The notes below the pieces were generated by a model. It was not told where the DNA came from, did not search any database, and was given only the letters and a program-made list of their open reading frames with translations. This document shows positions 1-37,493 of a stretch of DNA of 64,000 nt, piece by piece. The stretch is from a virus. Location: the IMG/VR virus record IMGVR_UViG_3300050026_000055, positions 1 through 64,000 of that record. One strand, given 5' to 3'. The translations under genes and the position numbers were made by a program. Numbering within the stretch: position 1 is the stretch's first letter; each line of letters begins with the position of its first letter.

Positions 1-78
1 GCCAGCACGCCGTCCGATGGCCAGCGGTGAGCCAGCACGCCGTCCGATGGCCAGCGGTGAGCCAGCACGCCGTCCGAT
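1..78. repeat. 30-bp GC-rich tandem repeat, 2.6 copies, possibly cut by the window edge
   Basis: GCCAGCACGCCGTCCGATGGCCAGCGGTGA at 1-30 and 31-60, partial at 61-78. Confidence 0.95.
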
Positions 79-204
79 TATTCGATTCGCAGTTATCTCA
101 TTTTAAATCAGTTACATGCATTATTCTGCATATTCACATATTCAGATATTTGCAGATTACTGCTTCCGGCGGTGCGCGGCGGTCCCGGCTGACCGCAGTG
201 CTCA

Positions 205-300
205 TATATTCTATGCATAATGGCTCGGTACTTGGAATAAAGTCTATATGTAATGGCTCGGTACTTGGAATAAAATCTATATGTAATGGCTCGGTACTTG
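205..300. repeat. 33-bp tandem repeat, about 3 copies, each containing AATGGCTCGGTACTTG
   Basis: 16-mer at 219-234, 252-267 and 285-300 (period 33). Confidence 0.95.
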
Positions 301-309
301 AAAAAGTTC

Positions 310-338
310 TTGACAAAAGCTATTGGAAGCTGTAATAT
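310..338 (+). promoter_or_regulatory. sigma70-type early promoter
   Basis: TTGACA-17-TAATAT. Confidence 0.85.
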
Positions 339-370
339 GTATTCAGTAAGAGATTAAAGGAGCCAATCAA

Positions 371-529
371 ATGACGCGCTGGATGGAAACCTGCAAATGT
401 GGCAAGCTGACTCTCTCAACAATCAAACTTAATGGGCAAGTGGTTTGTCTATCTTGCTTAGAAAATTTAGCACCTGCCTTGCAAACAATTGCAAGCCAAC
501 CCAAGACGACGAAAGAGGTAACAGCATGA
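371..529 (+). CDS. small Cys-rich hypothetical protein (not in ORF track)
   Basis: AAAGGAG SD; MTRWMETCKCGK...VCLSCL; ATGA overlap with the next gene. Confidence 0.65.
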   Translation: MTRWMETCKCGKLTLSTIKLNGQVVCLSCLENLAPALQTIASQPKTTKEVTA

Positions 530-723
530 ATCACGTATACGCTGTATACCATGAATACGAGGAAGAATTAGGATGTGAATACTCAACATGGCATGAAGAA
601 TTAGCAGGCTTGTTTGCAACGGAAGCACTGGCCGAGCAGTGTGTTGCAAAGCGGTCACCTGACATTTGTAATCTAAATGGACGCTATTTTGTAAGAGCTG
701 TAACAATTCAAACGGAGGTTTAG
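526..723 (+). CDS. small early hypothetical protein
   Basis: GAGGT SD, ATG 526 (MNHVYAVY...). Confidence 0.7.
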   Translation: MNHVYAVYHEYEEELGCEYSTWHEELAGLFATEALAEQCVAKRSPDICNLNGRYFVRAVTIQTEV

Positions 724-725
724 AA

Positions 726-941
726 ATGACGCAGATTATTGATCTTGTTCCTAGCAGGAATAAAGAATTGACGAAATCAGATGAATATGTTTTGATTCGT
801 ATGCTTAGGACTAAAGGAGTTGTGACTATATTATACCGCGTTGCGGATTACAGCTTGCGAAAACGCTTGCTAGGAATTAACCGAGCAGTATTAAACGCTA
901 TTGACGAAATTAATCAAGAGATATATTATGACTTACACTAG
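726..941 (+). CDS. hypothetical protein
   Basis: GGAGG SD, tight packing. Confidence 0.65.
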   Translation: MTQIIDLVPSRNKELTKSDEYVLIRMLRTKGVVTILYRVADYSLRKRLLGINRAVLNAIDEINQEIYYDLH

Positions 942-1101
942 AAAAACTCGAACATGCTGGCGGTTCTTTGTAAACTACGGGCAGGGCTGGGAGCACGAAG
1001 CTACCAAATACACTGTACCCGAAATGAAAGACAACAGGCAGGCGTATTTTGAGAATTGCAGATACCCGCTGAAGATCGTGCGAGGACGAGAACGAATTTA
1101 A
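928..1101 (+). CDS. small phage hypothetical protein
   Basis: ATG 928, MTYTRKTR...NYGQGWEHE. Confidence 0.65.
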   Translation: MTYTRKTRTCWRFFVNYGQGWEHEATKYTVPEMKDNRQAYFENCRYPLKIVRGRERI

Positions 1102-1130
1102 TTGACAGCGCGTAGCAAACCTGCTAGTAT
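1102..1130 (+). promoter_or_regulatory. sigma70-type promoter with extended -10
   Basis: TTGACA-17-TAGTAT with TGn. Confidence 0.8.
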
Positions 1131-1175
1131 TAGCATATTGATTCGGTACTCGTTCGGTACTTAGAAGGAGACGTT

Positions 1176-1682
1176 ATGCCAAAGTATCTAAAGTTGTGGA
1201 AGTGTCCGAAGTATTACATCGGCAAGCACTGGCCGGAATACTACGTTGTAACTGGACGTAACCGTGACTCTGGTTTGCTTGATAATCACAACTTTGACGT
1301 TATCGTTGAGGCACTGCGCGAAGTTGCCGAAAAGATGCCGGATTGGAAAGAAAAAATTTGGGATAAGTGGCTAATATCTCCATATGAATCGCATTGGGCG
1401 GTCGGTTGGGTTGAATGGATTGGAATACACAAGGATGCACCGCCACAATTGATTGATACGGCTGATAAGCTATTAGGTGAGTTGGAAGATTATCCAACTC
1501 TAAATGAAGATGAATTATCAGAAAAGGAATGGACAGCCGCGCAAGAATTTTGGGAACGAATGAGTGTCAAGGAACGGCTTGAATTGTGTCAGAAGAACCG
1601 TTGTAGTATCTTTGCAGCACGGCATCCATGGATACCGCAAGATGATAACGGCGGCATTTTTGAAGATTGCAGACCAGAATAG
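1176..1682 (+). CDS. hypothetical phage protein
   Basis: AAGGAG SD, 168-aa ORF. Confidence 0.8.
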   Translation: MPKYLKLWKCPKYYIGKHWPEYYVVTGRNRDSGLLDNHNFDVIVEALREVAEKMPDWKEKIWDKWLISPYESHWAVGWVEWIGIHKDAPPQLIDTADKLLGELEDYPTLNEDELSEKEWTAAQEFWERMSVKERLELCQKNRCSIFAARHPWIPQDDNGGIFEDCRPE

Positions 1683-1685
1683 TAC

Positions 1686-1714
1686 TTGACAATGCGGCTG
1701 TAATCTGTTATTAT
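1686..1714 (+). promoter_or_regulatory. sigma70-type promoter with extended -10
   Basis: TTGACA-17-TATTAT with TGn. Confidence 0.85.
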
Positions 1715-1735
1715 TGTTTCAGTAAGGAGAACGAA

Positions 1736-2287
1736 ATGAAAAATAAAAAGATTAACAATGGCATGGATGTGATAGACAGCCGTGACGTAATCGCCCGCAT
1801 CGAAGAGTTGGAAGCGTTGCAGGAAGAGGCGAAAGACGCCGCAAGCGAGCAGATAGAAGCGATTGAAGTTGAAGAGGCGAAATTAACGGATTGGCTCAAA
1901 GACAAAAATGTTTTTGAAATCCTAACATCCGAAGAGTTGACAAAAAAGCTGGCGCAAATCTCAGACATGAAAGACGCGATTTTGTCTGACGATGAGGGCA
2001 ACCCGCTGTCTGATGACTTCGGTACAGACGAAGCTTACGAATTGCAGGCGCTAAAGTCTTTGGCCGATCAAGCTGATGGTTGCGGCGATTGGGCCTACGG
2101 CGCACAGCTAATAGCTGATGATTATTTTGAAAAATTCGCCAGAGAGTTTGCCGACGAAATCGGCGCAATTCCGAAAAACGCAAACTGGCCATGCACTTGT
2201 ATTGATTGGACTGAGGCAGCGAGCGAGTTACAGCAGGATTATACAGCGGTTGAGTTCGACAGCGCAACGTATTGGATACGTGATTAA
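1736..2287 (+). CDS. ArdA-like acidic antirestriction (DNA-mimic) protein
   Basis: Very D/E rich; C-terminal FEKFAREFADE...CIDWTEAASELQQDY...YWIR resembles the ArdA C-terminal domain; SD before ATG 1736. Confidence 0.6.
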   Translation: MKNKKINNGMDVIDSRDVIARIEELEALQEEAKDAASEQIEAIEVEEAKLTDWLKDKNVFEILTSEELTKKLAQISDMKDAILSDDEGNPLSDDFGTDEAYELQALKSLADQADGCGDWAYGAQLIADDYFEKFAREFADEIGAIPKNANWPCTCIDWTEAASELQQDYTAVEFDSATYWIRD

Positions 2288-2312
2288 TTGATTCGGTACT
2301 AAGAGGAGCACC

Positions 2313-2471
2313 ATGAAAAAATTCAACGTGTTTGAAAGCAATCAATTGGCAATCGCCGTTCAAACTATAAAGTACCCGCAAGCTATGGCTACGGCTCTGG
2401 GCGGCATGACTAAGGACGAAGCAAGAGCAGTCATTCTCAAGCTGACAGGCAGGCCAGCAAAGGAGCAATAA
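2313..2471 (+). CDS. small hypothetical protein (not in ORF track)
   Basis: GAGGAG SD, 52 aa, TAATG overlap. Confidence 0.65.
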   Translation: MKKFNVFESNQLAIAVQTIKYPQAMATALGGMTKDEARAVILKLTGRPAKEQ

Positions 2472-2704
2472 TGCTGACGACTACGCGATTGGTTACGTCT
2501 CACCGTCGATTGACAGCCTATGCACTGGCCTGCGGATATGTGGAGCGCAAAGGCGAGGGCGATAATCGCACGGTACTTGATCGTGAGAATGGCTGTTATA
2601 ACGTCAAAGGCTTCAAAAATGGGAAGCACTTTTGGGAATCGTTCGGTACTCTAACCGCAGCGCGGAAGTTCTATTCCGGTTGCTTGAAAGCGAGAACAAA
2701 ATGA
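2471..2704 (+). CDS. hypothetical protein
   Basis: AAGGAG SD, coupled. Confidence 0.7.
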   Translation: MLTTTRLVTSHRRLTAYALACGYVERKGEGDNRTVLDRENGCYNVKGFKNGKHFWESFGTLTAARKFYSGCLKARTK

Positions 2705-2880
2705 AGGTACAAACCAAGATCGTATACAGATTTCAAGGTGAGAAGGAAGAGAAGCATATAAACGATGTAGCTCTAGCATTGTCAGACTTGTTGGTGTTTA
2801 ACAACAGAGTCATAGCCGTTCAAGAGTCTGGTTATAACTCTTCCACCGTGATTTATTTCACGCCTGAGTACTCATTTTAA
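2701..2880 (+). CDS. hypothetical protein
   Basis: ATGA overlap at 2701. Confidence 0.6.
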   Translation: MKVQTKIVYRFQGEKEEKHINDVALALSDLLVFNNRVIAVQESGYNSSTVIYFTPEYSF

Positions 2881-2891
2881 GGAGTTCTGTT

Positions 2892-3107
2892 ATGAAGGTT
2901 TCTGAGTTGATTAACAAGTTGCAAGGTTTTCAACAAGACCGCCCGGTCAAGCTGAACTGGGAAGGCGAAATCGTAGAAATTAAGACCGTGGTTTTGATCG
3001 ACGTAAAACAGTACCATCCTGACGAAGATCACGGCTCGGAAGATTACTGGCCGGAACTAGAACTGGAAGATGAAGCGATTCGATACAAGGCGGTCCTGAT
3101 TAATTGA
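2892..3107 (+). CDS. hypothetical protein (MKVSELINKL-type N-terminus)
   Basis: AAGGAG SD. Confidence 0.7.
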   Translation: MKVSELINKLQGFQQDRPVKLNWEGEIVEIKTVVLIDVKQYHPDEDHGSEDYWPELELEDEAIRYKAVLIN

Positions 3108-3127
3108 TTCGGTACTAAAAAAATCTG

Positions 3128-3156
3128 TTGACATTATGGCTTGCATGTGTTAATAT
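3128..3156 (+). promoter_or_regulatory. sigma70-type promoter with extended -10
   Basis: TTGACA-17-TAATAT with TGn. Confidence 0.85.
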
Positions 3157-3181
3157 AAGAGAGTCGAAAAAGGAGAATACA

Positions 3182-3412
3182 ACGGTTACGGTACAGGTTC
3201 ACACGACAGCAATTAAGCCTCACGGCTGCGTAAAGGGCGGTCCGATCAAGGCAAAGACGGGCGCATCCAAAGAGAAGGCAGTAGCAGAACAGCCTTTTCC
3301 TTACACTAACGGAGCGGTCTACCAAGACGCAAAGTTTGGCAAGGGTATGCGGCCGATGAATTCGGTTCGCGGCGGCGGTTTTCGCTGCACCGTTTGCGGC
3401 AATCTTGCATAG
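3182..3412 (+). CDS. small zinc-ribbon-like protein with probable ACG start
   Basis: AAGGAG 6 nt before an in-frame ACG; YQDAKFGKGMR...RCTVCG. Confidence 0.55.
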   Translation, partial: TVTVQVHTTAIKPHGCVKGGPIKAKTGASKEKAVAEQPFPYTNGAVYQDAKFGKGMRPMNSVRGGGFRCTVCGNLA

Positions 3413-3421
3413 GAGCAAGTC

Positions 3422-3577
3422 ATGGACAACAAATTTCCGTATAAGCATACACTGAGAGTCTCATTGACTACTCAGTTCCCAAAAGACAAGGAATATCTTG
3501 AGGCTCTGATTAAAATTATGTTAGGGCCGTGGTGCGACAAAGTACAGGCCGAAAAGTTAAACGAGATTGAGAACTAA
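3422..3577 (+). CDS. small hypothetical protein (not in ORF track)
   Basis: AGGAG SD, 51 aa. Confidence 0.6.
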   Translation: MDNKFPYKHTLRVSLTTQFPKDKEYLEALIKIMLGPWCDKVQAEKLNEIEN

Positions 3578-3827
3578 GTTCACTTGCTAGAAGTGCCAGT
3601 GTAAGGCTTGCCGAAATATAAGGCTGTAAAGCACGGTGCGATGAAAAGGCTGTGTAAAGCTGACTGTTGGCTAAACGACTAACCTATATAACCCCGGCGT
3701 GCGCGGCCGGATCATAAGATAAATTAGAATATATAAATGTGATGGTATAGAGTAAGGTCCGAGCTAGAGAATAGCAGTCTAACTCTAGCTCGGTATATAA
3801 ACCATTTGGTACTTAGAGGATGACACA

Positions 3828-4004
3828 ATGAAAGTAACAACAGCGATACGCACAGTACTAGATCAGAAAAACGGCGGTGTCTATGTGCATACTCATGACA
3901 TAGCCAAGATAATCGAAGAATTTGCCGCAGAAGCCGAGCTAATATCGAAAGCGTCAGTGTTAGAATTGGCACGTGATTTCCTGAGAATTGAGGTAACAAC
4001 ATGA
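3828..4004 (+). CDS. small hypothetical protein (not in ORF track)
   Basis: GAGGA SD, 58 aa, ATGA overlap. Confidence 0.6.
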   Translation: MKVTTAIRTVLDQKNGGVYVHTHDIAKIIEEFAAEAELISKASVLELARDFLRIEVTT

Positions 4005-4387
4005 CAAAGCGTTTGGTACTTGCTTTGCTAATTTGTTCGGTACTTGTCGGTGCGGCTCAGGCGCAGGACGAACACAAGTTTTTCGATAAGACTAACATTG
4101 TTTTGTTTTCGGTGAGCACTGGCGCAATGGTCGCAGATTTGACTCAGACTGTTGTAATGGTGGGAACAGGCAACTATCACGAAGTTAACCCGATGGTGGC
4201 AGGATTGATTAACAGTCGCACTGTTGCTGGTGATGTAACCGCCGGGGTACTTGCTGAATCACTGACGGTAGGCATAGCCTACTTGTTCCATCGTACCGGA
4301 CATCATAGGCTTGAAAGACTTGTTCCTGTGGTATCAGCTACAGGCAATGTGACGGCCATAGTTCATAATAATTTGTCGGTGTGGTAA
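4001..4387 (+). CDS. signal-peptide membrane protein, DUF5658-like
   Basis: Signal peptide ending AQA; D-xxx-T and E-x-NP motifs; hydrophobic helices. Confidence 0.65.
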   Translation: MTKRLVLALLICSVLVGAAQAQDEHKFFDKTNIVLFSVSTGAMVADLTQTVVMVGTGNYHEVNPMVAGLINSRTVAGDVTAGVLAESLTVGIAYLFHRTGHHRLERLVPVVSATGNVTAIVHNNLSVW

Positions 4388-4397
4388 AAAATAATGC

Positions 4398-4426
4398 TTG
4401 ACAAAGTGGTTTGTGTGTGTTAACAT
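4398..4426 (+). promoter_or_regulatory. sigma70-type promoter for the tRNA pair
   Basis: TTGACA-17-TAACAT with TGn. Confidence 0.8.
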
Positions 4427-4442
4427 TTGAGAATCAATTTAT

Positions 4443-4534
4443 GCAAGAGAGGCGGATATGGTTGGCCGCGACAGCCTGTAAAGCTGTTCTCCGTGTGAGT
4501 AACATTGGGGGTTCAAATCCCTCCTCTTGCACCA
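4443..4534 (+). tRNA. tRNA-Tyr(GTA), long variable arm, encoded CCA
   Basis: Acceptor GCAAGAG/CTCTTGC; anticodon arm ACAGC-CTGTAAA-GCTGT; T-loop TTCAAAT; ACCA end. Confidence 0.9.
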
Positions 4535-4539
4535 TTCGT

Positions 4540-4615
4540 GGGCCTGTAGCTCAGTTGGGAGAGCACCCGCCCTGCAAGCGGGGGGTCGCGAGTTCGACTC
4601 TCGCTAGGTCCACCA
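4540..4615 (+). tRNA. tRNA-Ala(TGC), encoded CCA
   Basis: Acceptor GGGCCTG/TAGGTCC with G3:U70; anticodon arm CCCGC-CCTGCAA-GCGGG; T-loop TTCGACT; 76 nt. Confidence 0.92.
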
Positions 4616-4697
4616 AGATCACAGTGGGAAGTAACACGGTAAGCACCATTGGATAGAGGCCAACACCGCCGTGCATAAGATAGGCTAGGTCCACCAA
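4603..4697 (+). repeat. 14-bp direct repeat of the tRNA-Ala 3' end
   Basis: GCTAGGTCCACCAA at 4603-4616 and 4684-4697. Confidence 0.9.
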
Positions 4698-4720
4698 TTT
4701 TTTCGGTACTGGAGAACATC

Positions 4721-4978
4721 ATGCTCGGAACTGTAGAATATTCAGTCGCAGAAATGATATTGTTTGACCACTTTGGCATGGCTGATATTGCACCGAACAT
4801 ACAGCCACCTATGCTTTATACAATGCTCGCAAGCAAAGCATTTATAATGAACGATCAAACATCGTGGTCTGACAGTTTGAGGCGCTGCATTACGGCGCTG
4901 GAAAAAGGTACAACGTATCGCATGACCCCTGAATGGGATCGCTTGATATTTAAAGGCATAGAGGATCGGTACTTATGA
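4721..4978 (+). CDS. hypothetical protein
   Basis: GGAG SD. Confidence 0.65.
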   Translation: MLGTVEYSVAEMILFDHFGMADIAPNIQPPMLYTMLASKAFIMNDQTSWSDSLRRCITALEKGTTYRMTPEWDRLIFKGIEDRYL

Positions 4979-5002
4979 AGCAACTAAACACAGGAGCGAA
5001 GC

Positions 5003-5179
5003 ATGAATTTTCACATTATACAGCCATGCACAAATTGCGGCTTTATACCGAACGATGTTAATTGGATGTGTTGCCCGAATTGTGGCCAGCATCGCAAAGT
5101 AGTCTGCAAATGCTTGAACTGCTTACGCAAGCGGTGGAGTTATCAAACACGCAAACAAATTGCTAGGAGTATACAATGA
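5003..5179 (+). CDS. small Cys-rich zinc-binding protein (not in ORF track)
   Basis: AGGAG SD; CTNC...CPNC...CKCLNC. Confidence 0.6.
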   Translation: MNFHIIQPCTNCGFIPNDVNWMCCPNCGQHRKVVCKCLNCLRKRWSYQTRKQIARSIQ

Positions 5180-5574
5180 AAATTCTAATAGTCGATGACG
5201 AGCAGTACGTCCGTGAGCATTTGCGACAGGTACTTTGTGACCATGAGGCAATCACAGCGATAAACGGCAAGCATGGGCTGGAGATATATAACAAAGAGCA
5301 CGATTTTGATCTGGTTATCTCGGACTACTGTATGCCGGGAATGAGCGGCGTTGAGTTCCTAGATCGCGTACACAGCTTGAACAACGAGCAGCCGATGGCG
5401 CTATTTACCGGTCACTCAACGGACTTTAGCAAGTATCTACCAAAGCACGCCAAGGGATTTTGTAAGCTATACCTTGAGGAATTGTTGGAGTACGTTGCAG
5501 AGGTAGCCGGGGAGACGTACCACGAACCGGACATTGGTGATTGGGATCAAGAGTGGTACTCACAACGAGCATAA
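5176..5574 (+). CDS. stand-alone response regulator receiver (CheY-like) domain
   Basis: ILIVDDE, DLVISDYCMPGMSG (phospho-Asp), FTG, conserved Lys in GFCK. Confidence 0.9.
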   Translation: MKILIVDDEQYVREHLRQVLCDHEAITAINGKHGLEIYNKEHDFDLVISDYCMPGMSGVEFLDRVHSLNNEQPMALFTGHSTDFSKYLPKHAKGFCKLYLEELLEYVAEVAGETYHEPDIGDWDQEWYSQRA

Positions 5575-5586
5575 GAGAGGCATATC

Positions 5587-5802
5587 ATGAACCGATTTCT
5601 AAGCTGGATAGGACAAAGAGTTTGCACGCATCCTACGAATAGAATCATCCGTCATTTGTCACACCGGACGGACATGGGCGTGCCTGATCCATACCTACAG
5701 TGTACTAGTTGTATGAAGATTTGGCCAATTTCTAAGGAGCTGTACCACGATAAGGCAATGAACTTGTCAATTCGTTCGGTACTTGAACGGAGTGAGCTGT
5801 GA
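5587..5802 (+). CDS. hypothetical protein with zinc-ribbon-like CxH/CxxC
   Basis: GAGG SD. Confidence 0.65.
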   Translation: MNRFLSWIGQRVCTHPTNRIIRHLSHRTDMGVPDPYLQCTSCMKIWPISKELYHDKAMNLSIRSVLERSEL

Positions 5803-5830
5803 GTTACACTCCATTTTCCAAACAAAAGTA

Positions 5831-5860
5831 TTGACAATGGCTCGGTACTTGTGATATAGT
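5831..5860 (+). promoter_or_regulatory. promoter of the recombinase gene with the repeat motif in its spacer
   Basis: TTGACA-18-TATAGT with TGn; AATGGCTCGGTACTTG at 5836-5851. Confidence 0.8.
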
Positions 5861-5880
5861 TGGTTTGTGAGGAAAAGACT

Positions 5881-6408
5881 ATGCAACACTTAACGAGAGA
5901 AGAATTACTGAGGCTTCTAGGCGCGGCTAAAGCCAAGTCAGATCGAGATTGGGCAATGATTTTAGTCGCGTTCTGGCACGGGCTGAGAGCATCTGAAGTA
6001 ATAGGCTTGACAGGCAAAAACATTAAAGACGGTTACATAACAGTACAGCGATTAAAAGGCAGTATGAGAACCATACAGCCGTTAATCGCTCACACTGATC
6101 CGTTGCTTAATGAGAAGCCTGCTCTGGAAGAACTGGTTAGGCAAAGAGGCACGGAGCGGTTGTTTCCTATGACTCGCGCTTGGTTCTGGTCAATTGTTCA
6201 GAAGCATGGGGCGACGGCCGGTATACCAGCACAAAAGCGGCACCCTCATACTCTGAAGCATTCAACGGCCATGCAGTCGATCAAAACGGCAGGCATTGAG
6301 AACGTCCGTCAGTATCTCGGACATAAGAACATTAGCAGTACTGGAGCATACTTAAAGGTCAGTGACGACGAAGCAAGCGAAGCGTTCGCACTGGCGGCAG
6401 CAGTTTAA
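5881..6408 (+). CDS. short tyrosine recombinase, catalytic domain only (FimB/FimE-like)
   Basis: HGLRASEV, RLKGS, HPHTLKHS, YLGH, GAY. Confidence 0.88.
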   Translation: MQHLTREELLRLLGAAKAKSDRDWAMILVAFWHGLRASEVIGLTGKNIKDGYITVQRLKGSMRTIQPLIAHTDPLLNEKPALEELVRQRGTERLFPMTRAWFWSIVQKHGATAGIPAQKRHPHTLKHSTAMQSIKTAGIENVRQYLGHKNISSTGAYLKVSDDEASEAFALAAAV

Positions 6409-6419
6409 AGGAGAATATT

Positions 6420-6839
6420 ATGAAAGTAGTCATCAACAAGTGTTTCGGCGGATTTAGTTTGTCACCGAAGGCAATTCGTCGGTTGGCTGAGTTAAAGGGC
6501 AGGAAGTGTTTTTTCTTTGACGGCTGGCGAAAGCCTTACACACCAATCTCTGATGAAGAAGCAGCGAAGTGCTTTGCTGCTACAGCATTTGATGTAGCAA
6601 ACCCTAACGAAATAGATGATAGTGAATATAGAGAACATTCTTTGTATTTTTGTGATATTGACCGGACTGATGCCGATTTAGTCAAGGTTGTCGAGGAGTT
6701 GGGCGCAGGACACCGAACCGGAGCCAGCGGTAGTTGTGCTGATTTGCGAATCGTTGAGATACCGGACGGCGTTAATTACGAGATTGCAGAATATGATGGC
6801 AGTGAGCACATTGCCGAAATTCACAGAACTTGGGGATAA
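6420..6839 (+). CDS. phage hypothetical protein
   Basis: MKVVINKCFGGFSLS...IVEIPD...EYDG; SD. Confidence 0.8.
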   Translation: MKVVINKCFGGFSLSPKAIRRLAELKGRKCFFFDGWRKPYTPISDEEAAKCFAATAFDVANPNEIDDSEYREHSLYFCDIDRTDADLVKVVEELGAGHRTGASGSCADLRIVEIPDGVNYEIAEYDGSEHIAEIHRTWG

Positions 6840-6843
6840 GAAA

Positions 6844-7077
6844 ATGGCATCGCAGAAGTTAAACCAAAAGAAGTGTGATATTTGTAGTCGTATCGTTGGG
6901 CAACCCGTTATCTCTGCCTTTGCTAACGGTGATGGGTTGCCCCATTATGTCTATCTTGCATTTACCTCCGGTACTAATGCCTTTCTAGTTAACATTAGGC
7001 GAAAGGGATTTCGGCAGTACGTCAAGGATGGAAAGTTCGTGATGAAGCGAGTACGCAAAGAAATTAAATATTCCTAA
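6844..7077 (+). CDS. hypothetical protein
   Basis: ATG just after the previous stop; CxxC. Confidence 0.55.
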   Translation: MASQKLNQKKCDICSRIVGQPVISAFANGDGLPHYVYLAFTSGTNAFLVNIRRKGFRQYVKDGKFVMKRVRKEIKYS

Positions 7078-7085
7078 TTTTTCGC

Positions 7086-7114
7086 TTGACAAAACGGCTT
7101 TGGAAGAGTATTAT
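7086..7114 (+). promoter_or_regulatory. sigma70-type promoter
   Basis: TTGACA-17-TATTAT. Confidence 0.8.
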
Positions 7115-7136
7115 ATACACAGTTGGAGAGAAACTA

Positions 7137-7274
7137 ATGAAATATCGTGTTGAATTTTGCGGCGAAGTCGAGGTTGAAGCTGAGTCTGAGCTGGAAGCTG
7201 AATGCTATGCGGCGTTTGACTGCAAACCTGACAACTGCCGTGTTCTAGAAATCGACGAGTTTACAGAAGAATAA
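7137..7274 (+). CDS. small acidic protein (VEVEAESE motif)
   Basis: GGAG SD, ATG 7137. Confidence 0.65.
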   Translation: MKYRVEFCGEVEVEAESELEAECYAAFDCKPDNCRVLEIDEFTEE

Positions 7275-7372
7275 AAGTTTCGGGTGTCGCACATACTGAC
7301 ATGGACAAGGATTCGGCATTGTGTTAAAAAGGCACCCGATTGTACAATATACCGCTTGAAAGGACTAAAGTA

Positions 7373-7834
7373 ATGACAAAGACGCGATTCAAGCATTGCG
7401 ACTATTTGCGTAACTTTATTATTCCTAATAGGTTACAAGAACGAATTAAATTGGCGCACCGTGCATTGGAGTACCACGATTTTGAGGCGATTGCGTTCCG
7501 TGGCATGTCAGGCGCGTTGGTTTCTATTCCACTTGCGCTGGAAATGAACAAGACATTGATTATGGTTCGCAAGCCAAAAGAGGATACTCACAGCAGCTAT
7601 CCAGTAGAGGGAGACACTCAGGCCAAGCGGTATGTCATTGTAGATGACTTTGTAGCATCCGGAGACACGGTAAAGGCAGTTAAAAAGGCAGTCTCAAAGT
7701 TCGCGCCGGATTCGGAATGTATTGGTGTATTAGAAGTAAACCACATTGAAACACATTTTTTTAAGAAGTATAAGTATGGCCGAGAGAATCTGTATCCGTT
7801 GTGGAACAAGCCTTACGTTGAAGAAGGAGAATAA
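7373..7834 (+). CDS. type I phosphoribosyltransferase-family protein
   Basis: PRPP loop YVIVDDFVASGDT; IMVRK; GMSGA. Confidence 0.85.
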   Translation: MTKTRFKHCDYLRNFIIPNRLQERIKLAHRALEYHDFEAIAFRGMSGALVSIPLALEMNKTLIMVRKPKEDTHSSYPVEGDTQAKRYVIVDDFVASGDTVKAVKKAVSKFAPDSECIGVLEVNHIETHFFKKYKYGRENLYPLWNKPYVEEGE

Positions 7835-8026
7835 TTGCTGAGTAATTACGAAAAAAATCAACCATCGGTAGTTTTTGTTCACGCAGGACAAAATGCATTT
7901 TTGATTGGCATAAGCCTTTCAAACAATCCTTATACTGATCCGGTAGCCAAAGAGCTATGGGACAAGGGGTTTAGGTCAGCGCGTCGGAAGTTTGACGCAA
8001 ACAAGCGGCCAGCAACACGGCGCTAG
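7835..8026 (+). CDS. Rmf/CrpP-fold small protein
   Basis: G-xx-A-xxx-G...NPY...W-xx-GF pattern as in ribosome modulation factor. Confidence 0.55.
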   Translation: MLSNYEKNQPSVVFVHAGQNAFLIGISLSNNPYTDPVAKELWDKGFRSARRKFDANKRPATRR

Positions 8027-8035
8027 GAGACTATC

Positions 8036-8197
8036 GTGGATTATACTGATCCAGTTTACAAGCGTATGGACCGTTGTATTAGGCATCTTGAAAAGCTGTT
8101 AGAGATTGCCAGCGACGAAATGAATACTGCTCACGCTACAAAGCGTGTAGATTTTCGTAAACAATGGGAGTTGATCGCACTGAAGGAAGCCAATTAG
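8036..8197 (+). CDS. small hypothetical protein (not in ORF track)
   Basis: AGGAG SD, GTG start. Confidence 0.5.
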   Translation: MDYTDPVYKRMDRCIRHLEKLLEIASDEMNTAHATKRVDFRKQWELIALKEAN

Positions 8198-8373
8198 TGA
8201 CAGAGAGCGAACAGTTAGACGCACTGTGGGTTGCTGCTGAAGAATTAGCTAGATCAATCGGACACCATACTGTTTGCAATTGTAAGGGATGCACCTGCGG
8301 AACTGCCGCAAAGCAGGCCGAAGCGTTGACCAAGTACGAGCGTTTAAAAGGAGAGCAAGTTAATGATCGGTGA
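8197..8373 (+). CDS. small Cys-containing hypothetical protein
   Basis: GTG coupled to the previous stop; CNCKGCTC. Confidence 0.5.
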   Translation: MTESEQLDALWVAAEELARSIGHHTVCNCKGCTCGTAAKQAEALTKYERLKGEQVNDR

Positions 8374-8525
8374 CATTGCATATTTACTTGGAGTTAAGTA
8401 TGGACGCAACGAGTCAGAAGGAAAAATTCTGGCACTTGAGTTTGAGTTAGAGATTTATAAAGAGACTGTTAAACTATTGGTAAAAAAGTATTTGGAACTA
8501 GCCTCTAGGAATTAAAAAGGAGAAA

Positions 8526-8999
8526 ATGAAAAAGATCAAACTAACCAAGGGCTATGTTGCACTGGTTGATGACGAAGATTACGAACGAGTAGTCAAAGCT
8601 GGCCCTTGGTTTGCTAATGCGCGCAAAGATGGTGTAGTATATGCTATACGCAATGTAAAAAGAAACGGCAAGCGCACGATGGAGTACATGCACCAATTTA
8701 TAACAGGAAAGCGCCATCAGGATCACCGAAACCGTAATAAATTGGATAATTGTAGGCTAAACTTCAGATCATGCAATCAATCACAAAATTCAGCTAATGC
8801 AAACAAACGCAAAACACTGTCATCCTCGCTATTTAAAGGGGTAAGTTGGGATAAAGTTAACAACAAATGGAAAGCGCAAATTATGCTAAACTATAAAAGC
8901 AAAAATTTGGGACGATATAAGACAGAGGCAGAAGCCGCCAACGCTTATAAAGCAGCAGCTAAGACGCTTTTTGGAGAATTTGCCAATGCAGGATGTTGA
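8526..8999 (+). CDS. HNH homing endonuclease with AP2 domain
   Basis: DHRNRNKLDNC; FKGVSW...KWKAQI...LGRYKTEAEAANAY. Confidence 0.9.
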   Translation: MKKIKLTKGYVALVDDEDYERVVKAGPWFANARKDGVVYAIRNVKRNGKRTMEYMHQFITGKRHQDHRNRNKLDNCRLNFRSCNQSQNSANANKRKTLSSSLFKGVSWDKVNNKWKAQIMLNYKSKNLGRYKTEAEAANAYKAAAKTLFGEFANAGC

Positions 9000-10149
9000 A
9001 AACCTTATAAATAGATTTGGAGGTTGGACGGAAAGTTACTGGTTTTATGATAACACAGTAGAGTTGAGATACGATCCAAAAGAGCATTTGTATTTTTTAA
9101 TTCAGGATGGTAAACTAACTCCTGTTTCTGGTGTTAGCACAATTACTCACATTGTGGACAAATCGAGCGCGCTGATCCCGTGGGGAGTTAAAATGAGTAT
9201 GGAGAAGCTACTTCGTCTCATTCCTATACTAACGCTTCCCACGGGAGAAAAGCACGTTGGTGCGCTAACACTTGACGAATTGAACAGGCTTATTGTTGAA
9301 GCTAAAACTGCGCCTAAAGACAAGCTGGAAGAGGCAGGAGACATCGGTTCTATTGCTCACGCTTGGCTTGAGACATATGCAAAATCGCAGATTGCCGGGA
9401 CAGATGAGTATAAATCTCTGGTATGGCCATTAGACGAGAAGGCGACGAGTTGCTGTAGGGCCGGATTGAAGTGGATTACGGCCCATAATGTTAGGTTTAC
9501 TTATGCTGAACGTAAGGTTTATTCATGCAAGCACAATTACGCCGGAACGCTAGATGCAATTGGGCTAGTAGACTCATGTTCTGATCCTTTGTGCTGTCCC
9601 GAACGGTTTGTAGATCGCCTGAGTCTCATTGATTGGAAGAGTAGTAACTACCTGTATATTGAGTACTTGTTTCAGACGGCGGGGTACGAACACGCAGTTG
9701 AAGAGGAACTAAAGTTAGATATTGTTGACAGATGGGTAAACAGACTCGGTAAATTAGACGGGGAATATGAACCTTGGCACATCGGACCAGAAGGCTTTAA
9801 AGAAGACTTTGACGGATTTTTAAACTGTCTAGCGCTTAGTCGTTCGGTACTCAAAGTAGAATCTCGGATGCGACAAGTGCGTGCTCACATTAAAGACGAG
9901 AAGAAGAAGGTGCGAGAGGCTGCGAAGGCGGCGAAGTTAGCTGCTGAGAAATTGGCTAAAGCTGAGACAAAGGCAATTAAGAAGGCAGCGAAAGAGGCAG
10001 CAAAGGCTGAGTTGAAACAGGCTAAATTGGAAGCAAAGTTAGCAAAAAAGAAAGGCAAAAATGCAGGAGCAGACACAGCAGCACCAACCCGGAATGAAAG
10101 CCAAGACGATAAAGGCAATCCTTCGCAAGAAGATCGACCAGTGGCTTGA
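8986..10149 (+). CDS. PD-(D/E)XK exonuclease with Lys/Ala-rich C-terminal tail
   Basis: GVSTI, GSIAH, E...YAGTLDA, LIDWKSS, QTAGY. Confidence 0.8.
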   Translation: MQDVENLINRFGGWTESYWFYDNTVELRYDPKEHLYFLIQDGKLTPVSGVSTITHIVDKSSALIPWGVKMSMEKLLRLIPILTLPTGEKHVGALTLDELNRLIVEAKTAPKDKLEEAGDIGSIAHAWLETYAKSQIAGTDEYKSLVWPLDEKATSCCRAGLKWITAHNVRFTYAERKVYSCKHNYAGTLDAIGLVDSCSDPLCCPERFVDRLSLIDWKSSNYLYIEYLFQTAGYEHAVEEELKLDIVDRWVNRLGKLDGEYEPWHIGPEGFKEDFDGFLNCLALSRSVLKVESRMRQVRAHIKDEKKKVREAAKAAKLAAEKLAKAETKAIKKAAKEAAKAELKQAKLEAKLAKKKGKNAGADTAAPTRNESQDDKGNPSQEDRPVA

Positions 10150-11038
10150 AACTATTGAGGATGTAAAACTGCGTCAACTCGCTTCAAAGAACATCATCGT
10201 CACTGGCGGCTGTATAGCCAGTATGCTGCTCGGTGAGCAGGTCAACGATTTTGATCTTTATTGTCGTGACCATGCAACGACTTTAGGATTAGCTAATTAT
10301 TATTTAGCACACTTCAAGCCGCGTATGTCCAAAGGAATCGCAGTTCCGTTAAAGGTTAAGGACGAAGATGGGCGTGTCAGCATTGTAGTAAAGTCTGCTG
10401 GCATCGTCTCAGAAAATGGTACTGAGAAGGCGTATGAGTATTTTGAAGGATCGCCGGATCAGGCGGCAGCGGCTTATGTTGGCGAAGTGATGAACGATCC
10501 CGGAGAAATTGAGGACACCTATCAGGAAGTTGAAAAGCTGTCTCAAAATGAGACAACTGATGAAGGCAAGCCTAAGTACCGTCCGGTATTCTTGACTACT
10601 AATGCCATTACACTAAGCGACAAGATTCAAATTATCATGCGGTTCTACGGTGAGCCGGATGAAATACACAAGAATTACGACTTTGTACACTGCACGAATT
10701 ATTGGTCAAGTTGGGACAGCCAGTTAGTACTCAGGCAGGAAGCATTGGAGGCATTGCTTTCTAAAGAACTTAGGTACATCGGCAGCAAGTACCCGATTTG
10801 CTCGGTTGTCCGGTTGCGTAAGTTTATTGCTCGCGGCTGGCAGGTAAACGCAGGCCAGATTCTCAAGATGGCAATGCAGATTAGTGCGCTGGATTTGAAC
10901 GATCTGGAAGTGTTGCGGGATCAGTTAACAGGAGTTGACACGGCGTATTTTATGCAGTTGATCGACAGGCTGAAAGAGAAAGACCCGGTTCGTGTTGAGT
11001 CGGTCTATCTCGTTGAAATCATAGACAGGATGTTCTAA
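10061..11038 (+). CDS. Pol-beta-superfamily nucleotidyltransferase, possibly Gad2-like (start may be 10094)
   Basis: TGGCIAS...VNDFDLY signature; NAITL; YDFVHC. Confidence 0.7.
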   Translation: MQEQTQQHQPGMKAKTIKAILRKKIDQWLETIEDVKLRQLASKNIIVTGGCIASMLLGEQVNDFDLYCRDHATTLGLANYYLAHFKPRMSKGIAVPLKVKDEDGRVSIVVKSAGIVSENGTEKAYEYFEGSPDQAAAAYVGEVMNDPGEIEDTYQEVEKLSQNETTDEGKPKYRPVFLTTNAITLSDKIQIIMRFYGEPDEIHKNYDFVHCTNYWSSWDSQLVLRQEALEALLSKELRYIGSKYPICSVVRLRKFIARGWQVNAGQILKMAMQISALDLNDLEVLRDQLTGVDTAYFMQLIDRLKEKDPVRVESVYLVEIIDRMF

Positions 11039-11226
11039 TGACAAACGAACAAAAAGCAAAGATAGACGCAATGTCTCAGTATCAATTGTGTGAGCTGTGG
11101 CGATTTGCTAAGTGTCCAAATCCGCTGCTGCAAGGCGACACAGGCGATTATTTTGCAGAACGGCTTAAACAAATGGGCGGATTTACACCTGAAATAAGCA
11201 GGGATTTGGGATGGGGAAAGCGATGA
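11038..11226 (+). CDS. small hypothetical protein
   Basis: TAATG coupling. Confidence 0.65.
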   Translation: MTNEQKAKIDAMSQYQLCELWRFAKCPNPLLQGDTGDYFAERLKQMGGFTPEISRDLGWGKR

Positions 11227-11483
11227 CAAAAGCAATTTGGAAGTATACATTAGAACGTGATACACAAAGCATAGCGGCACCGATAGGTGCCAAGTGGCTC
11301 TGCGCTCACGAACAAGGCAATGACGTTTGTGTGTGGGCAGAAGTTGATACAGCCGAAAAGGAACTAATACTTTACTGTTTTGAAGAATACTGTACCGGTG
11401 AGCCATTCAGAGTAAATGGCAAATATCTCGGTACTTGCTTCTTTAATAATGGCTCTTGTGTGCTACATGTTTACCTAAAATAG
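11223..11483 (+). CDS. small phage hypothetical protein
   Basis: AIWKYTL...VWAEVD...YLGT...LHVY; ATGA overlap. Confidence 0.7.
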   Translation: MTKAIWKYTLERDTQSIAAPIGAKWLCAHEQGNDVCVWAEVDTAEKELILYCFEEYCTGEPFRVNGKYLGTCFFNNGSCVLHVYLK

Positions 11484-11486
11484 TCC

Positions 11487-11515
11487 TTGACAAAATCGTT
11501 CTGAGCGTGTATACT
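11487..11515 (+). promoter_or_regulatory. sigma70-type promoter
   Basis: TTGACA-17-TATACT. Confidence 0.85.
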
Positions 11516-11537
11516 TGTTTTAAATGGAGAGAAATTA

Positions 11538-11699
11538 ATGGCAAAGATTTGTAAAAATCCACAGTGCGACAGCCATAAGTTCGGCTGGACGTTCACCGTC
11601 AGTACAGCAGAAGATGAGAATAGTTATTGCAGTTCGACGTGTGAGAATCAGGCGTTGGGCAAAGAAATCGCAACAGACAAACGAAAGAGGGGGCAATGA
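11538..11699 (+). CDS. small Cys-rich protein (not in ORF track)
   Basis: GGAG SD; CKNPQC...YCSSTC. Confidence 0.55.
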   Translation: MAKICKNPQCDSHKFGWTFTVSTAEDENSYCSSTCENQALGKEIATDKRKRGQ

Positions 11700-12232
11700 G
11701 TAGGCCCAAAGTTTATGATTTAGTTGGTAAGACTTTTGAGCGTTTGCTGGTACTAAATAGAGAAGGGTCAGACAGCCAGCACCGTTCATTGTGGAAGTGT
11801 AGATGTATTTGTGGCAAAGAGTTAATAATCATTGGCAGTAGTTTGGTTGGTGGTAAAACCAGAAGTTGTGGCTGTATTAAGATAAAATCAGATGCAGCCA
11901 GAAACCAAGTTGTAAGAGGTTATATCAAAGGGGCTAAAACACGCGGTTTACTTTATGAACTATCTCTAAATGACTTTGTGGCTATAACTCAAAAAAATTG
12001 CCACTATTGTGGACAAAAACCGATCAATGTTTATACCGCGCGCGGTGGTTCCATATATACATACAATGGCATTGATCGTCTTGATAATACGAGGGGTTAT
12101 GTATCAGGCAATTGTATGCCGTGCTGTGCTGTATGTAATTATATGAAAACTAATTTTACGGTTGACAAGTTTTTAACGAAGATAAAAGAAATATATCTTC
12201 ATAGCTTTAACAACGAAAGGAAGGAAAATTGA
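11696..12232 (+). CDS. HNH homing endonuclease
   Basis: DLVGKTFERL...WKCRCICG...SCGC; CHYCG; GIDRLDN...GNCMPCC. Confidence 0.85.
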   Translation: MSRPKVYDLVGKTFERLLVLNREGSDSQHRSLWKCRCICGKELIIIGSSLVGGKTRSCGCIKIKSDAARNQVVRGYIKGAKTRGLLYELSLNDFVAITQKNCHYCGQKPINVYTARGGSIYTYNGIDRLDNTRGYVSGNCMPCCAVCNYMKTNFTVDKFLTKIKEIYLHSFNNERKEN

Positions 12233-13053
12233 GCGAAGCATTAGCTGTAGTCACACCTGAAGCATTACAAAGAGGTGGTCAAGGAATTGATTTTGGATCG
12301 AAATTGTTCCAATTGCGCCCAGCCACCGTGTCAATTAATCAACCGCTAACGCAAGCAGAAAACGCCATCAAAGGCAAATTGCGGATCGCAGAAACGGGGC
12401 AGCAGTTTGACGAAATGAAGGTCGCACTTCTGGCAATGCCGCAAGAGGCGCGTTCGTATAACATCGGAGAAATACCTTCAGCAGACACATTGATGTGTTT
12501 TTCTCGCGACATGGAAAAGCCGGATGCAAAGGCTCGCGTTCCGCAAGCGTTGCGATGTAACGGCTGTCCGAAGGCGGATTGGTCTAAGTGGCGCGAAACT
12601 AAAAACATCAAAGATTTGCCGCCGTGCGGTGCGTATTATTATTGTATTCTTGTTGATACAGTTTACAAGATGCCGTTGCAAATGTACATCCGTGGCGGTA
12701 GTCGTAGTCCGTTTGAAACGGGTATGCAGAATCTTGCTAGGACGTTCGCTATGCTGAAGTCACAAAACAAAAGCCCAAATATTTACGACATTTCTTTTAC
12801 CCTTGCCGCTGAGAAGGCAAAGAAGGGCGTCAACTATGTAGTTAAGCTTTCGGATTTTAAAGCAATTGCTGAGTCTGAGCAGGAAGCGTTTGGTGATTTG
12901 TATCTTCAGTATGTCAATCGTGGACGGAAAACTGAGGAACAGTTAGCTGAAGAGGAAGCAGCTTCGCAGGAAGCGGCCGTCGATGCGGCGATGGTACAGC
13001 CGGGAAGTCCTAGCGCACCAGCCGGTGTTCAGGAAGAGGAGATTACAATCTAA
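12229..13053 (+). CDS. putative ssDNA-binding or annealing protein
   Basis: C-x-S-x-D...PQ...CxxCP motif; acidic C-terminal tail; replication context. Confidence 0.55.
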   Translation: MSEALAVVTPEALQRGGQGIDFGSKLFQLRPATVSINQPLTQAENAIKGKLRIAETGQQFDEMKVALLAMPQEARSYNIGEIPSADTLMCFSRDMEKPDAKARVPQALRCNGCPKADWSKWRETKNIKDLPPCGAYYYCILVDTVYKMPLQMYIRGGSRSPFETGMQNLARTFAMLKSQNKSPNIYDISFTLAAEKAKKGVNYVVKLSDFKAIAESEQEAFGDLYLQYVNRGRKTEEQLAEEEAASQEAAVDAAMVQPGSPSAPAGVQEEEITI

Positions 13054-17741: not shown

Positions 17742-18050
17742 ATGAGTAAATCTAACAATCGGTACGGCAAGACACTTTACACAATGACACTTAGAACTGA
17801 TGCCGTTGTGCAACCAACTCAAAACATGAAGGATCAGGTTATCTATTTAGATTGGGCTAGTAAGAAGGAATTCAGCAAGCCATATGACAATCTGGACGAC
17901 TTGCAAAAAACACAGATTCACATGAACATCAAGATGGGCGTTTACAAGGAGAAGCGTGAATCTACTAGACCTAATCAAAAAGCCGCAGGCAGTCAAGGCA
18001 GTCCGACGAGTACGAGCGGAACCAGTCGAACCGGAACTGCCACAGCTTAG
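17742..18050 (+). CDS. hypothetical protein
   Basis: GAGGA SD. Confidence 0.6.
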   Translation: MSKSNNRYGKTLYTMTLRTDAVVQPTQNMKDQVIYLDWASKKEFSKPYDNLDDLQKTQIHMNIKMGVYKEKRESTRPNQKAAGSQGSPTSTSGTSRTGTATA

Positions 18051-18228
18051 AGTTGTCGAACCGCTAGCCGAAGGAGCATTGGTTTGCTATTACCTTGAAG
18101 GCTGGCGCTACGGTTACGTGGAGCAAATAAAACCTAAGACGGTAAAGATTAGACCAATCACGCCGTATAGAGGCACTCAGCCGCGAAGCGTAACCGTTTC
18201 TATTGAGAATTTGGAGAAGCCCAAGTGA
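17956..18228 (+). CDS. hypothetical protein, possible SH3-like beta-barrel
   Basis: AAGGAG SD with GTG start. Confidence 0.6.
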   Translation: MNLLDLIKKPQAVKAVRRVRAEPVEPELPQLRVVEPLAEGALVCYYLEGWRYGYVEQIKPKTVKIRPITPYRGTQPRSVTVSIENLEKPK

Positions 18229-37447: not shown

Positions 37448-37464
37448 GCTCTCCATTTGAATAC

Positions 37465-37493
37465 ATAATACCACACGAACGATAATTTGTCAA
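37465..37493 (-). promoter_or_regulatory. sigma70-type promoter
   Basis: TTGACA-17-TATTAT with TGn on the minus strand. Confidence 0.8.

Follow-up and report, generated by a model that had tools for sequence, protein, structure and literature searches.

Short asymmetric sites that occur in many copies, all oriented with transcription, are known from the Cluster A mycobacteriophages (L5 gp71, TipsytheTRex; PMC9283540), in which monomeric repressors read them. We have analysed a comparable array, formed by the 8-mer TCGGTACT in the early genes of an uncultured phage from peat metagenomes (IMG/VR record IMGVR_UViG_3300050026_000055). The window, meaning the whole stretch of 64,000 nucleotides under analysis, corresponds to the first 64,000 bases of a virus genome assembled as a single contig of 96,280 bp. 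The array is a real, selected signal and a conserved feature of a large soil/peat phage family, while its mechanism is not settled. The reading we favour, as possible rather than probable, is an oriented, stoperator-like operator array controlling early transcription by the host RNA polymerase.

The likeness to Cluster A phages extends to the placing of the sites, which in both cases are found in promoters, at gene junctions and over a core promoter element. In our phage the overlap is with the extended -10 or the spacer; the site of L5 includes the complement of a TTGACA resembling a -35. Cluster A sites are spread genome-wide in temperate phages, whereas the array occupies one early block of 9-15 kb, in a phage that is probably virulent, a podovirus-type relative of Tunturi_3 of ~96 kb in which no full integrase or repressor was found. 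In addition, the Cluster A repressor is a two-domain helix-turn-helix (HTH) protein, and no gp71-like or HTH repressor was detected here. Repressor binding in Cluster A blocks both initiation and elongation, depending on orientation; for the present array a similar action is a proposal.

Three other systems share some of its properties. The end-clustered Chi arrays of the lambdoid phages LLS and MD8 (PMC12315714) repeat an 8-mer 20-30 times towards one end of the genome, almost always with the same orientation. Unlike these, our word is not enriched in the candidate host class, the phage has its own recombination genes, and the copies are tied to promoters and junctions. The promoter-early stem-loop (PeSL) cassettes of T4-type phages, reportedly described by Arbiol et al. 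in 2010, are repeated regulatory linkers flanking small early ORFans. This also holds here, where early gene content is hypervariable and one strain-level deletion falls exactly between two copies. Unlike in PeSL, no stem-loop was seen by reading alone (folding was not run), the unit is an oriented word of 8-18 nt, most copies have no adjacent promoter, and the word also occurs in conserved genes and in tandem before the first promoter. In phage T4 itself, MotA boxes act on DNA at promoters, and RegB acts on GGAG in the Shine-Dalgarno (SD) sequences of early mRNAs. These too are short oriented words of the early or middle region that time early expression. In contrast to MotA boxes, the distance of our word to the -10 varies (2-5 nt, or the word is itself the -10), and homologues of MotA/AsiA and RegB were not detected.

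A polar word in the early block

A preliminary description of the window had listed 15 copies of TCGGTACT on the + strand, between 225 and 11435, and one on the - strand, at 48914. Every one was found to be exact, and the latter is the only - strand copy in 96,280 bp. No further + strand copy is present in the rest of the window, and the remaining 32 kb of the genome add none either. In 100 dinucleotide shuffles the word was obtained 1.08 times on average and 4 times at most, and an unbiased ranking of k-mers against an order-2 Markov background placed it as the most over-represented 8-mer of the genome. With the degenerate core T[CT]GGTACT, 17 sense copies were counted within positions 1-11600, for 0.5 expected, and 0 antisense copies; the middle, late and right-hand regions were at or below expectation. 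The full 8-mer is enriched ~30-fold, in the early block only; the bare hexamer GGTACT is enriched ~two-fold in sense in late genes, which is a codon-pair level effect. We conclude that the array is indeed polar and limited to one region, as first proposed. The near matches reported at the same time were also real, with 8 one-mismatch copies on the + strand of the first 11.6 kb, except for that at 4244, which has two mismatches.

Three forms of the motif were recognised, TCGGTACT, TTGGTACT and CTGGTACT. Conservation extends beyond the core, over a site of ~15-18 bp that reads TAATGGCT(C)GGTACTT(T)GG in general and TTAWTTGAKYYGGTACT at junctions (motif-bearing sequence TAATGGCTCGGTACTTGG), and an AAT located 3-4 nt ahead of the core is common to many copies (AAT-N3-4-TCGGTACT). 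Eleven of the 15 copies were found at gene junctions or promoters, the others being inside genes, which bears out the location first described. Expressed more strictly, 11/15 copies are outside gene bodies or no more than 30 nt from a stop codon, positions that together account for 20% of the region (p = 1e-5); when tandem copies were collapsed, the ratio was 8/12 (p = 6e-4). The possibility that the motif is a promoter by itself was rejected after reading its contexts, as in this phage there is no -10 at a fixed distance downstream.

Set against the ~13-bp asymmetric sites of Cluster A, which are present in many copies, we thus have 15 exact copies and at least 2 variants, conserved over 15-18 nt. 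The strand ratio found here (17 to 0) is accompanied by ratios of 19-22 sense to 0-2 antisense in relatives; this comparison is weak, because there are no oppositely transcribed genes inside the block. As to position, the copies of this phage are located at early promoters and in short intergenic regions, and those of most relatives are mainly intragenic.

Site anatomy and candidate mechanisms

The motif copies and promoters of this phage mapped below are on the + strand. The array opens with a 33-bp tandem unit, present in 2.8 copies (218-307), which contains three TAATGGCTCGGTACTTG with cores at 225, 258 and 291. These cores are centred near -118, -85 and -52 of P310, the first early sigma-70-type promoter (TTGACA-17-TAATAT, 310-338), and the cluster ends 11 bp before its -35. 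The same arrangement is found at P3128, where the copy at 3109 lies 11 bp before the -35 and is centred near -52. This copy belongs to a 22-mer (3097-3118) that is the repeat of another one, TGATTAATTGATTCGGTACTAA (2281-2302). The duplication had been noticed in the preliminary description and is real; each unit is a junction cassette combining stops in all three frames (TGATTAATTGA) with a motif copy, at 2293 in the first case. At P5831 (5831-5860), the promoter of a recombinase-like gene, copy 5842 lies in the spacer (TTGACA-ATGGCTCGGTACTTGTGA-TATAGT), within a 16-mer, AATGGCTCGGTACTTG, that is also present in the left-end repeats. Another copy (5776-5783) is placed 47 bp upstream of the -35 of P5831 and 19 nt before the stop of gene 5587-5802, and the last one (11428-11435), in gene 11211-11483, is 51 bp upstream of the -35 of P11487.

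A second group of copies is found in leaders and next to ribosome binding sites. Transcripts from the early promoter P1102 (1102-1130) have two copies 11 bp apart in their 5′ leader (1143 and 1154, 1143-1161), the second ending 1 nt ahead of the SD AGAAGGAG of gene 1176-1682. The cassette at 2281-2302 is directly followed by an SD and by an ATG at 2313. A variant copy, TTGGTACT (3806-3813), is 1 nt ahead of the SD of gene 3828-4004, and copy 4703-4710, downstream of two tRNA genes, abuts the SD GGAGA of gene 4721-4978. In all, copies 1154, 2293 and 4703 and variant 3806 end 0-1 nt ahead of an SD. Upstream of copy 4703, at 4680-4702, the 3′ end of the tRNA-Ala (CTAGGTCCACCAA) is repeated ~70 bp downstream of the gene and followed by a run of T. 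The remaining copies are intragenic: 2643-2650 in gene 2471-2704, with the next start codon 50 nt downstream; a second TTGGTACT variant (4013) and an exact copy (4037), 24 bp apart (4013-4044), at the start of gene 4001-4387; 4966-4973 over the last codons of gene 4721-4978, 29 nt ahead of the next start codon; and 9844-9851 in the RecB/Cas4-type exonuclease gene 8971-10149.

On our favoured reading, T(C/T)GGTACT would be the core of an asymmetric site bound by a protein. This factor, sequence-specific and probably encoded by the phage, would nucleate where tandem copies precede the first early promoter, and would also sit on the copies found in promoter spacers and 5′ leaders, across -10 elements and within early genes. 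From its single orientation on the DNA it would govern how the host RNA polymerase transcribes the early block, the likeliest effect being that initiation is shut off and elongation blocked, as is the case for an L5-type repressor at operators and stoperators. Protein binding is favoured because of the promoter geometry, namely the position -52 found twice at the same spacing, the copies in spacers and leaders, the overlap with -10 elements and the tandem clusters suited to nucleation. Moreover, a DNA-binding regulator is plausible as a timing device, since sigma-70-type promoters are present genome-wide and neither a sigma factor nor a T7-type RNA polymerase was detected. Four points of this scheme are inferred: a reader of protein nature, action at the level of DNA and not of RNA, a repressive effect, and a phage gene for the factor. 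The asymmetric operator array first suggested fits the anatomy, through its tandem copies, spacers, leaders and junctions, but the protein that would read it was not found.

Several observations weigh against an operator array. As stated in the preliminary description, no obvious repressor gene is visible: the genome has no Pfam match to HTH_3, sigma-70 or NusG, the early open reading frames (ORFs) are blank in Pfam and PHROGs, and regulator families were absent among the ORFs scanned; a reader with a novel fold is possible. The genes of the block are all on one strand, so that polarity cannot separate an action on DNA from one on RNA. Stoperators of L5 are mostly found in short intergenic regions, unlike the copies of most relatives, the majority of which are inside genes. 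The phage looks virulent, hence there is no prophage to silence. The motif follows the G+C content of the phages (40-54%) more closely than it follows the exonuclease tree, which could mean that the reader is encoded by the host. Lastly, helical phasing of neighbouring copies was weakly supported in our own spacing tally.

Since polarity does not discriminate, the same copies might act as U(C/U)GGUACU in early mRNAs. An RNA-binding protein or endoribonuclease would then repress translation, or cut and retire early messages at the early-to-middle switch, like RegA and RegB of T4, and the tandem copies before the first promoter would be transcribed as a decoy or sponge RNA. RegB is a precedent, being a sequence-specific phage RNase active on early mRNAs. 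All copies are in the mRNA sense strand with a strong junction bias, and six of them, from this phage and the related locus L277 taken together, end 0-2 nt ahead of an SD. The tandem clusters are preceded by promoter-like sites, located near 96.05 kb in the present genome and at 926 in the related locus L174, and the block encodes a protein with a predicted RMF fold, expected on the anti-SD region of ribosomes. Against this, the fixed distances upstream of the -35 and the copies in spacers are more easily explained on DNA, and the non-coding region around the tandem cluster of L174 comes after an intrinsic terminator. No RNase or RNA-binding family was detected among the ORFs scanned, and reading of the sequence gave no hairpin common to the copies, folding not having been run. 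An antisense partner RNA carrying AGTACC was also looked for across the genome; no convincing candidate was found, which counts against the RNA reading. Overall we consider this explanation doubtful, although it deserves serious attention.

Comparison with a strain variant from another peat metagenome raised a different explanation. In this variant, position 2294 is joined to 3808, between the TCGGTACT copy of the first cassette and the TTGGTACT variant, with GGTACT at the joint, and the 1513-bp deletion removes 1.5 kb of small genes. The oriented copies might therefore be crossover sites for a conserved 175-aa tyrosine-recombinase-like protein, at which cassettes of early genes would be acquired, lost and swapped between co-infecting genomes in an integron- or PeSL-like manner, the single orientation avoiding inversions. 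Integron attC sites all share one orientation. The duplication of the 22-mer cassette at two junctions is in keeping with this, as is the conservation of the sites in relatives with unrelated early ORFs. The recombinase-like gene is present in 8/8 motif phages and lies inside the array; its promoter spacer carries the motif here, and the motif is its -10 in the related loci L187 and L040. Here, as in L277, sites are found on either side of small genes. On the other hand, genes that are conserved and probably essential contain many of the relatives' copies, the short sites show no inverted binding arms around the core, and the protein lacks a core-binding domain and has a Lys in place of the second catalytic Arg. 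The gene also exists in relatives without a dispersed array, and a single joint with 6 bp shared can come from ordinary illegitimate or short-homology recombination. We regard crossover sites as unlikely. Two other differences were recorded in the same variant strain, which lacks 81 bp after the tRNA-Ala gene (4616-4698), ending 5 nt before copy 4703, as well as exactly ORF 11038-11226 (window 11037-11223).

Conservation of the word in related phages

Related loci were collected with an alignment of the exonuclease, used against metagenomes, and an alignment of the recombinase-like protein, used against IMG/VR. Single-protein scans of IMG/VR with the recombinase-like and the Cas4-like protein gave no relatives, exact-pattern scans of it (with ATGGCTCGGTACTTG, or with a pair of cores no more than 30 nt apart) yielded nothing beyond chance matches and repeats of unrelated kinds, in coding sequence or iterons, and a megablast of positions 1-12000 against GenBank phages gave no match. 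The preliminary description had made its claim depend on an equivalent motif in related phages, and such a motif was found in Tunturi_3-like relatives: at least 10 related soil phages have one-way T(C/T)GGTACT in their early genes. Counts of TGGTACT on the + and - strands were 21/0 in L209, 20/0 in L187, 19/0 in L211, 19/2 in L174, 22/1 in L274, 11/2 in L277, 10/2 in L229 and 7/0 in L040, and in several of these relatives no other 7-mer ranks higher. Whole records show the copies gathered into a single block of 9-15 kb per genome: 19/20 + strand copies at 71.6-86.3 kb of a 98.6-kb genome, 11/12 copies at 19.2-29.0 kb of a 91-kb genome, and 22/22 - strand copies at 79.9-88.8 kb of an 89-kb genome; in L040, 7/7 copies are in the first 8.7 kb of 29.9 kb. 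The array had been called undescribed, and this holds for the present phage family.

The layout of the block is often conserved as well. It frequently opens with 2-5 tandem copies, and in L174 a terminator is followed by ~600 bp without coding sequence, after which five copies packed into 70 bp precede the first TTGACA promoter. L277, with 54% G+C, has two TAATGGCTGGTACTTTGG at a 23-bp spacing, a 17-mer that differs little from the one of our 44% G+C phage, and its junction copies, TTATTGAGCTGGTACT, are followed by an SD 1-2 nt further on. Across 11 loci, TGGTACTAT/CT forms the extended -10 of eight canonical promoters of relatives, and GGTACT starts in the spacer (-20 to -26) of six promoters, of which P5831 is one.

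The preliminary description had proposed that selection is on the nucleic acid. Evidence for this came from the exonuclease motif YAGT(M/L)D, which is encoded with GCT-GGT-ACT in 5/5 phages whose array covers the gene, and in 0/24 other phages, including low-G+C ones and the phage studied here. The word has thus been written into a conserved gene through its synonymous sites, and selection is at the level of the nucleic acid.

These results bear on whether the word needs any dedicated reader. It could be a passive part of a promoter/stop/SD linker spread by recombination, to which codon-pair bias would add. TGG-TA is indeed a generic extended -10 in this phage family, the junction cassettes are duplicated, and the two-fold sense excess of GGTACT in late genes is of the kind expected. 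This leaves unexplained the ~30-fold enrichment restricted to the early block, the synonymous-codon word found in a conserved gene in four lineages, and the retention of the same ~17-nt element in 44% and 54% G+C phages with unrelated early genes. We judge a passive linker very unlikely.

The phages with the motif are the lower-G+C members and do not form a single clade on the exonuclease tree. Some relatives do not have the word, and in one of them, Tunturi_3, CAGCGGA is found 24 times in sense and 3 times in antisense (4.4 expected) in the equivalent early region. In that genome (our locus L001, PP885686), CAGCGGA is on the reverse strand (~23.3-33.1 kb of the reversed locus); most copies are inside genes, where every reading frame is used, and CCAGCGA and CAGCGATG are likewise enriched there. 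In L041, CAGCGG occurs 18 times, all within the first 8.2 kb. The polar 8-mers of L272, L279, L294 and L260 turned out to be plain tandem repeats and were set aside, as they are not dispersed arrays.

Genome ends, neighbouring genes and early control

IMG/VR classifies the genome as ‘direct terminal repeats’, 100% complete. A 30-bp tandem repeat (GCCAGCACGCCGTCCGATGGCCAGCGGTGA, 1-78, no strand) continues at the other contig end, bridging both as in a circular-type assembly, and lies within a non-coding region ahead of the array. Genes of the + strand run from ~79 kb across the contig junction to 34.8 kb, and the late genes are on the - strand, from 34.9 to 75.8 kb. Because the + strand genes cross the contig junction, the array starts right after the non-coding repeat region, which may be the first-injected end. 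A Chi-like signal would be another reading, in which the word, or its complement AGTACCRA, would be read by a host RecBCD/AddAB-type enzyme or another DNA motor starting from a nearby genome end, and would protect the first-entering DNA or promote recombination. The array has one orientation, opens with tandem copies and adjoins a repeat-rich region that is a possible physical end, several relatives' contigs breaking there. End-clustered precedents exist, LLS having 20/23 of its Chi sites near one end in the same orientation, and MD8 showing a ratio of 32 to 0 (PMC12315714). The motif also tracks the G+C content of the phages, taken as a host proxy, better than the exonuclease tree.

A Chi sequence should be several-fold enriched in the host genome. 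The test was indirect, being made on the class that includes the only known host genus of the phage family, Terriglobia. In 0/121 Terriglobia genomes was T[CT]GGTACT over-represented, its frequency being mostly 0.2-0.6x that of a reversed-word control; one genome (G091) was at most slightly above the control and the others were below. Three of the 121 genomes (G076, G098, G107) are unpublished, and the result holds without them. In a 4.3-Mb Acidobacteriales metagenome-assembled genome the counts were 55 + 53, again below the control. The Tunturi_3 word, CCAGCGGA, was ~2.3-fold above control, with no strand skew on a 360-kb contig. Besides, these phages carry their own exonucleases (8971-10149, 12229-13053 and 36182-37474 here), to which Tunturi_3 adds a UvsX-like recombinase, and the Chi-rich lambdoid phages are those without Rec modules (PMC12315714). 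Nor is a junction and promoter bias expected of Chi. The Chi or end-protection proposal of the preliminary description is therefore weakened: the polar, clustered array stands, but there is no host-class enrichment and the phage has recombination genes of its own. On these grounds and because of the promoter/junction bias, we find a Chi-like signal quite unlikely.

A still more remote explanation is that a phage enzyme nicks one strand at GGTACT. Strand-specific interruptions are known in T5 and in the Pseudomonas phages tf and LUZ24, the consensus in the latter two being TACT/RTGMC. The confinement of the array to one strand, the TACT core in common with this consensus and the abundance of HNH endonucleases in the genome would agree with nicking. 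The promoter geometry would be left unexplained, however, and the HNH-AP2 gene (8526-8999, +) has homologues only in relatives without the motif, so that nick sites appear highly improbable. For the same reason the HNH-AP2 protein was rejected as the reader. It is one of two free-standing HNH endonuclease genes of the early/middle block, the AP2 domain being in this one and the other gene being at 11696-12232 (+).

Among the other proteins of the block, a candidate partner of the sites is the recombinase-like protein (5881-6408, +), 175 aa long, which has the catalytic domain of a tyrosine recombinase and lacks the N-terminal domain for DNA binding. Its family, with 96 IMG/VR matches, has HxLKH for HxLRH (Lys replacing the second catalytic Arg) and keeps Arg-I, Lys, His and Tyr. 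It is possibly this domain-less homologue that would act in a broader scheme of early-block addressing in ~90-100-kb soil/peat phages, where a ~17-nt element would allow one protein both to silence the block and to exchange cassettes, the stoperators of a virulent phage being thus fused with an integron-like function; we hold this dual role to be improbable. Two small protein families are limited to TGGTACT phages, with no family assignment detected. Small proteins encoded at 6420-6839 and 17956-18228 of the window are likewise conserved. A stand-alone response-regulator receiver domain (5176-5574, +; Pfam E = 1e-15) is also encoded among the early genes and has a homologue in one relative only.

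The RMF-like protein mentioned above has 63 aa (7835-8026, +). Pfam RMF matches 6/8 members of its family, its AlphaFold (AF2) model has a pLDDT of 85, and the best Foldseek matches are the RMF chains of hibernating ribosomes (TM-score 0.6-0.77). It co-occurs with the arrays and is conserved across the recombinase-bearing relatives. As a reader of the word it was rejected, since its fold points to the ribosome and it is also present in relatives without the motif. Ribosomes are its probable target, to judge from the modelled fold. As RMF masks the anti-SD region, the phage protein could shift translation away from SD-led mRNAs. Separately, several strong sigma-70-type promoters have an ATG just 6-9 nt past their -10, as in TATAAT-aggaaaat-ATG; such short-leader promoters are located at 31152 of the window (+) and at 64985, 78611, 79119 and 90756 (-) and 82990 (+) of the genome. 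With an ATG this close to the -10, leaderless mRNAs are predicted, unlike for the SD-led early genes. Together, the predicted leaderless promoters and the RMF-like protein suggest a translational early-to-middle switch.

Two further properties of the genome were noted. Strong sigma-70-type promoters (TTGACA-17-TAnnAT, often with an extended -10) are dense at 310-7086 and are present elsewhere too. That the motif serves as promoter of a phage RNA polymerase was rejected; Pfam RNA_pol gave no match, a search that was uninformative as control genomes were equally silent, and Tunturi_3 has no RNA polymerase annotated. Many 6-bp palindromes are strongly avoided genome-wide (CGATCG, 0 observed for 13 expected; GATATC, 1/16; TGATCA, 2/34; GTGCAC, 1/15; CAGCTG, 3/28), as are GGATCC, AGATCT and GTCGAC, the usual signature of restriction avoidance. 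An origin of the motif in avoidance of GTAC was rejected, as GTAC is not avoided.

The closest named relatives are the Acidobacteriota phages Tunturi_3 and Tunturi_4, whose replication proteins are 45-60% identical in aa to those found here and in which the small early ORFs have no homologues. Tunturi_3 is a 97.6-kb podovirus infecting Acidobacteriota (PMC11924767). Almost nothing is known of how genes are timed in phages of Acidobacteriota and other soil bacteria, and the present phages, in which neither an RNA polymerase nor a sigma factor was found, have to act through the enzyme of the host. The conserved oriented word provides a handle on this early control, marks the early region in uncultured genomes, and can serve as bait for the regulator; its role is testable in cultured relatives, that is, the Tunturi phages and Tunturiibacter.

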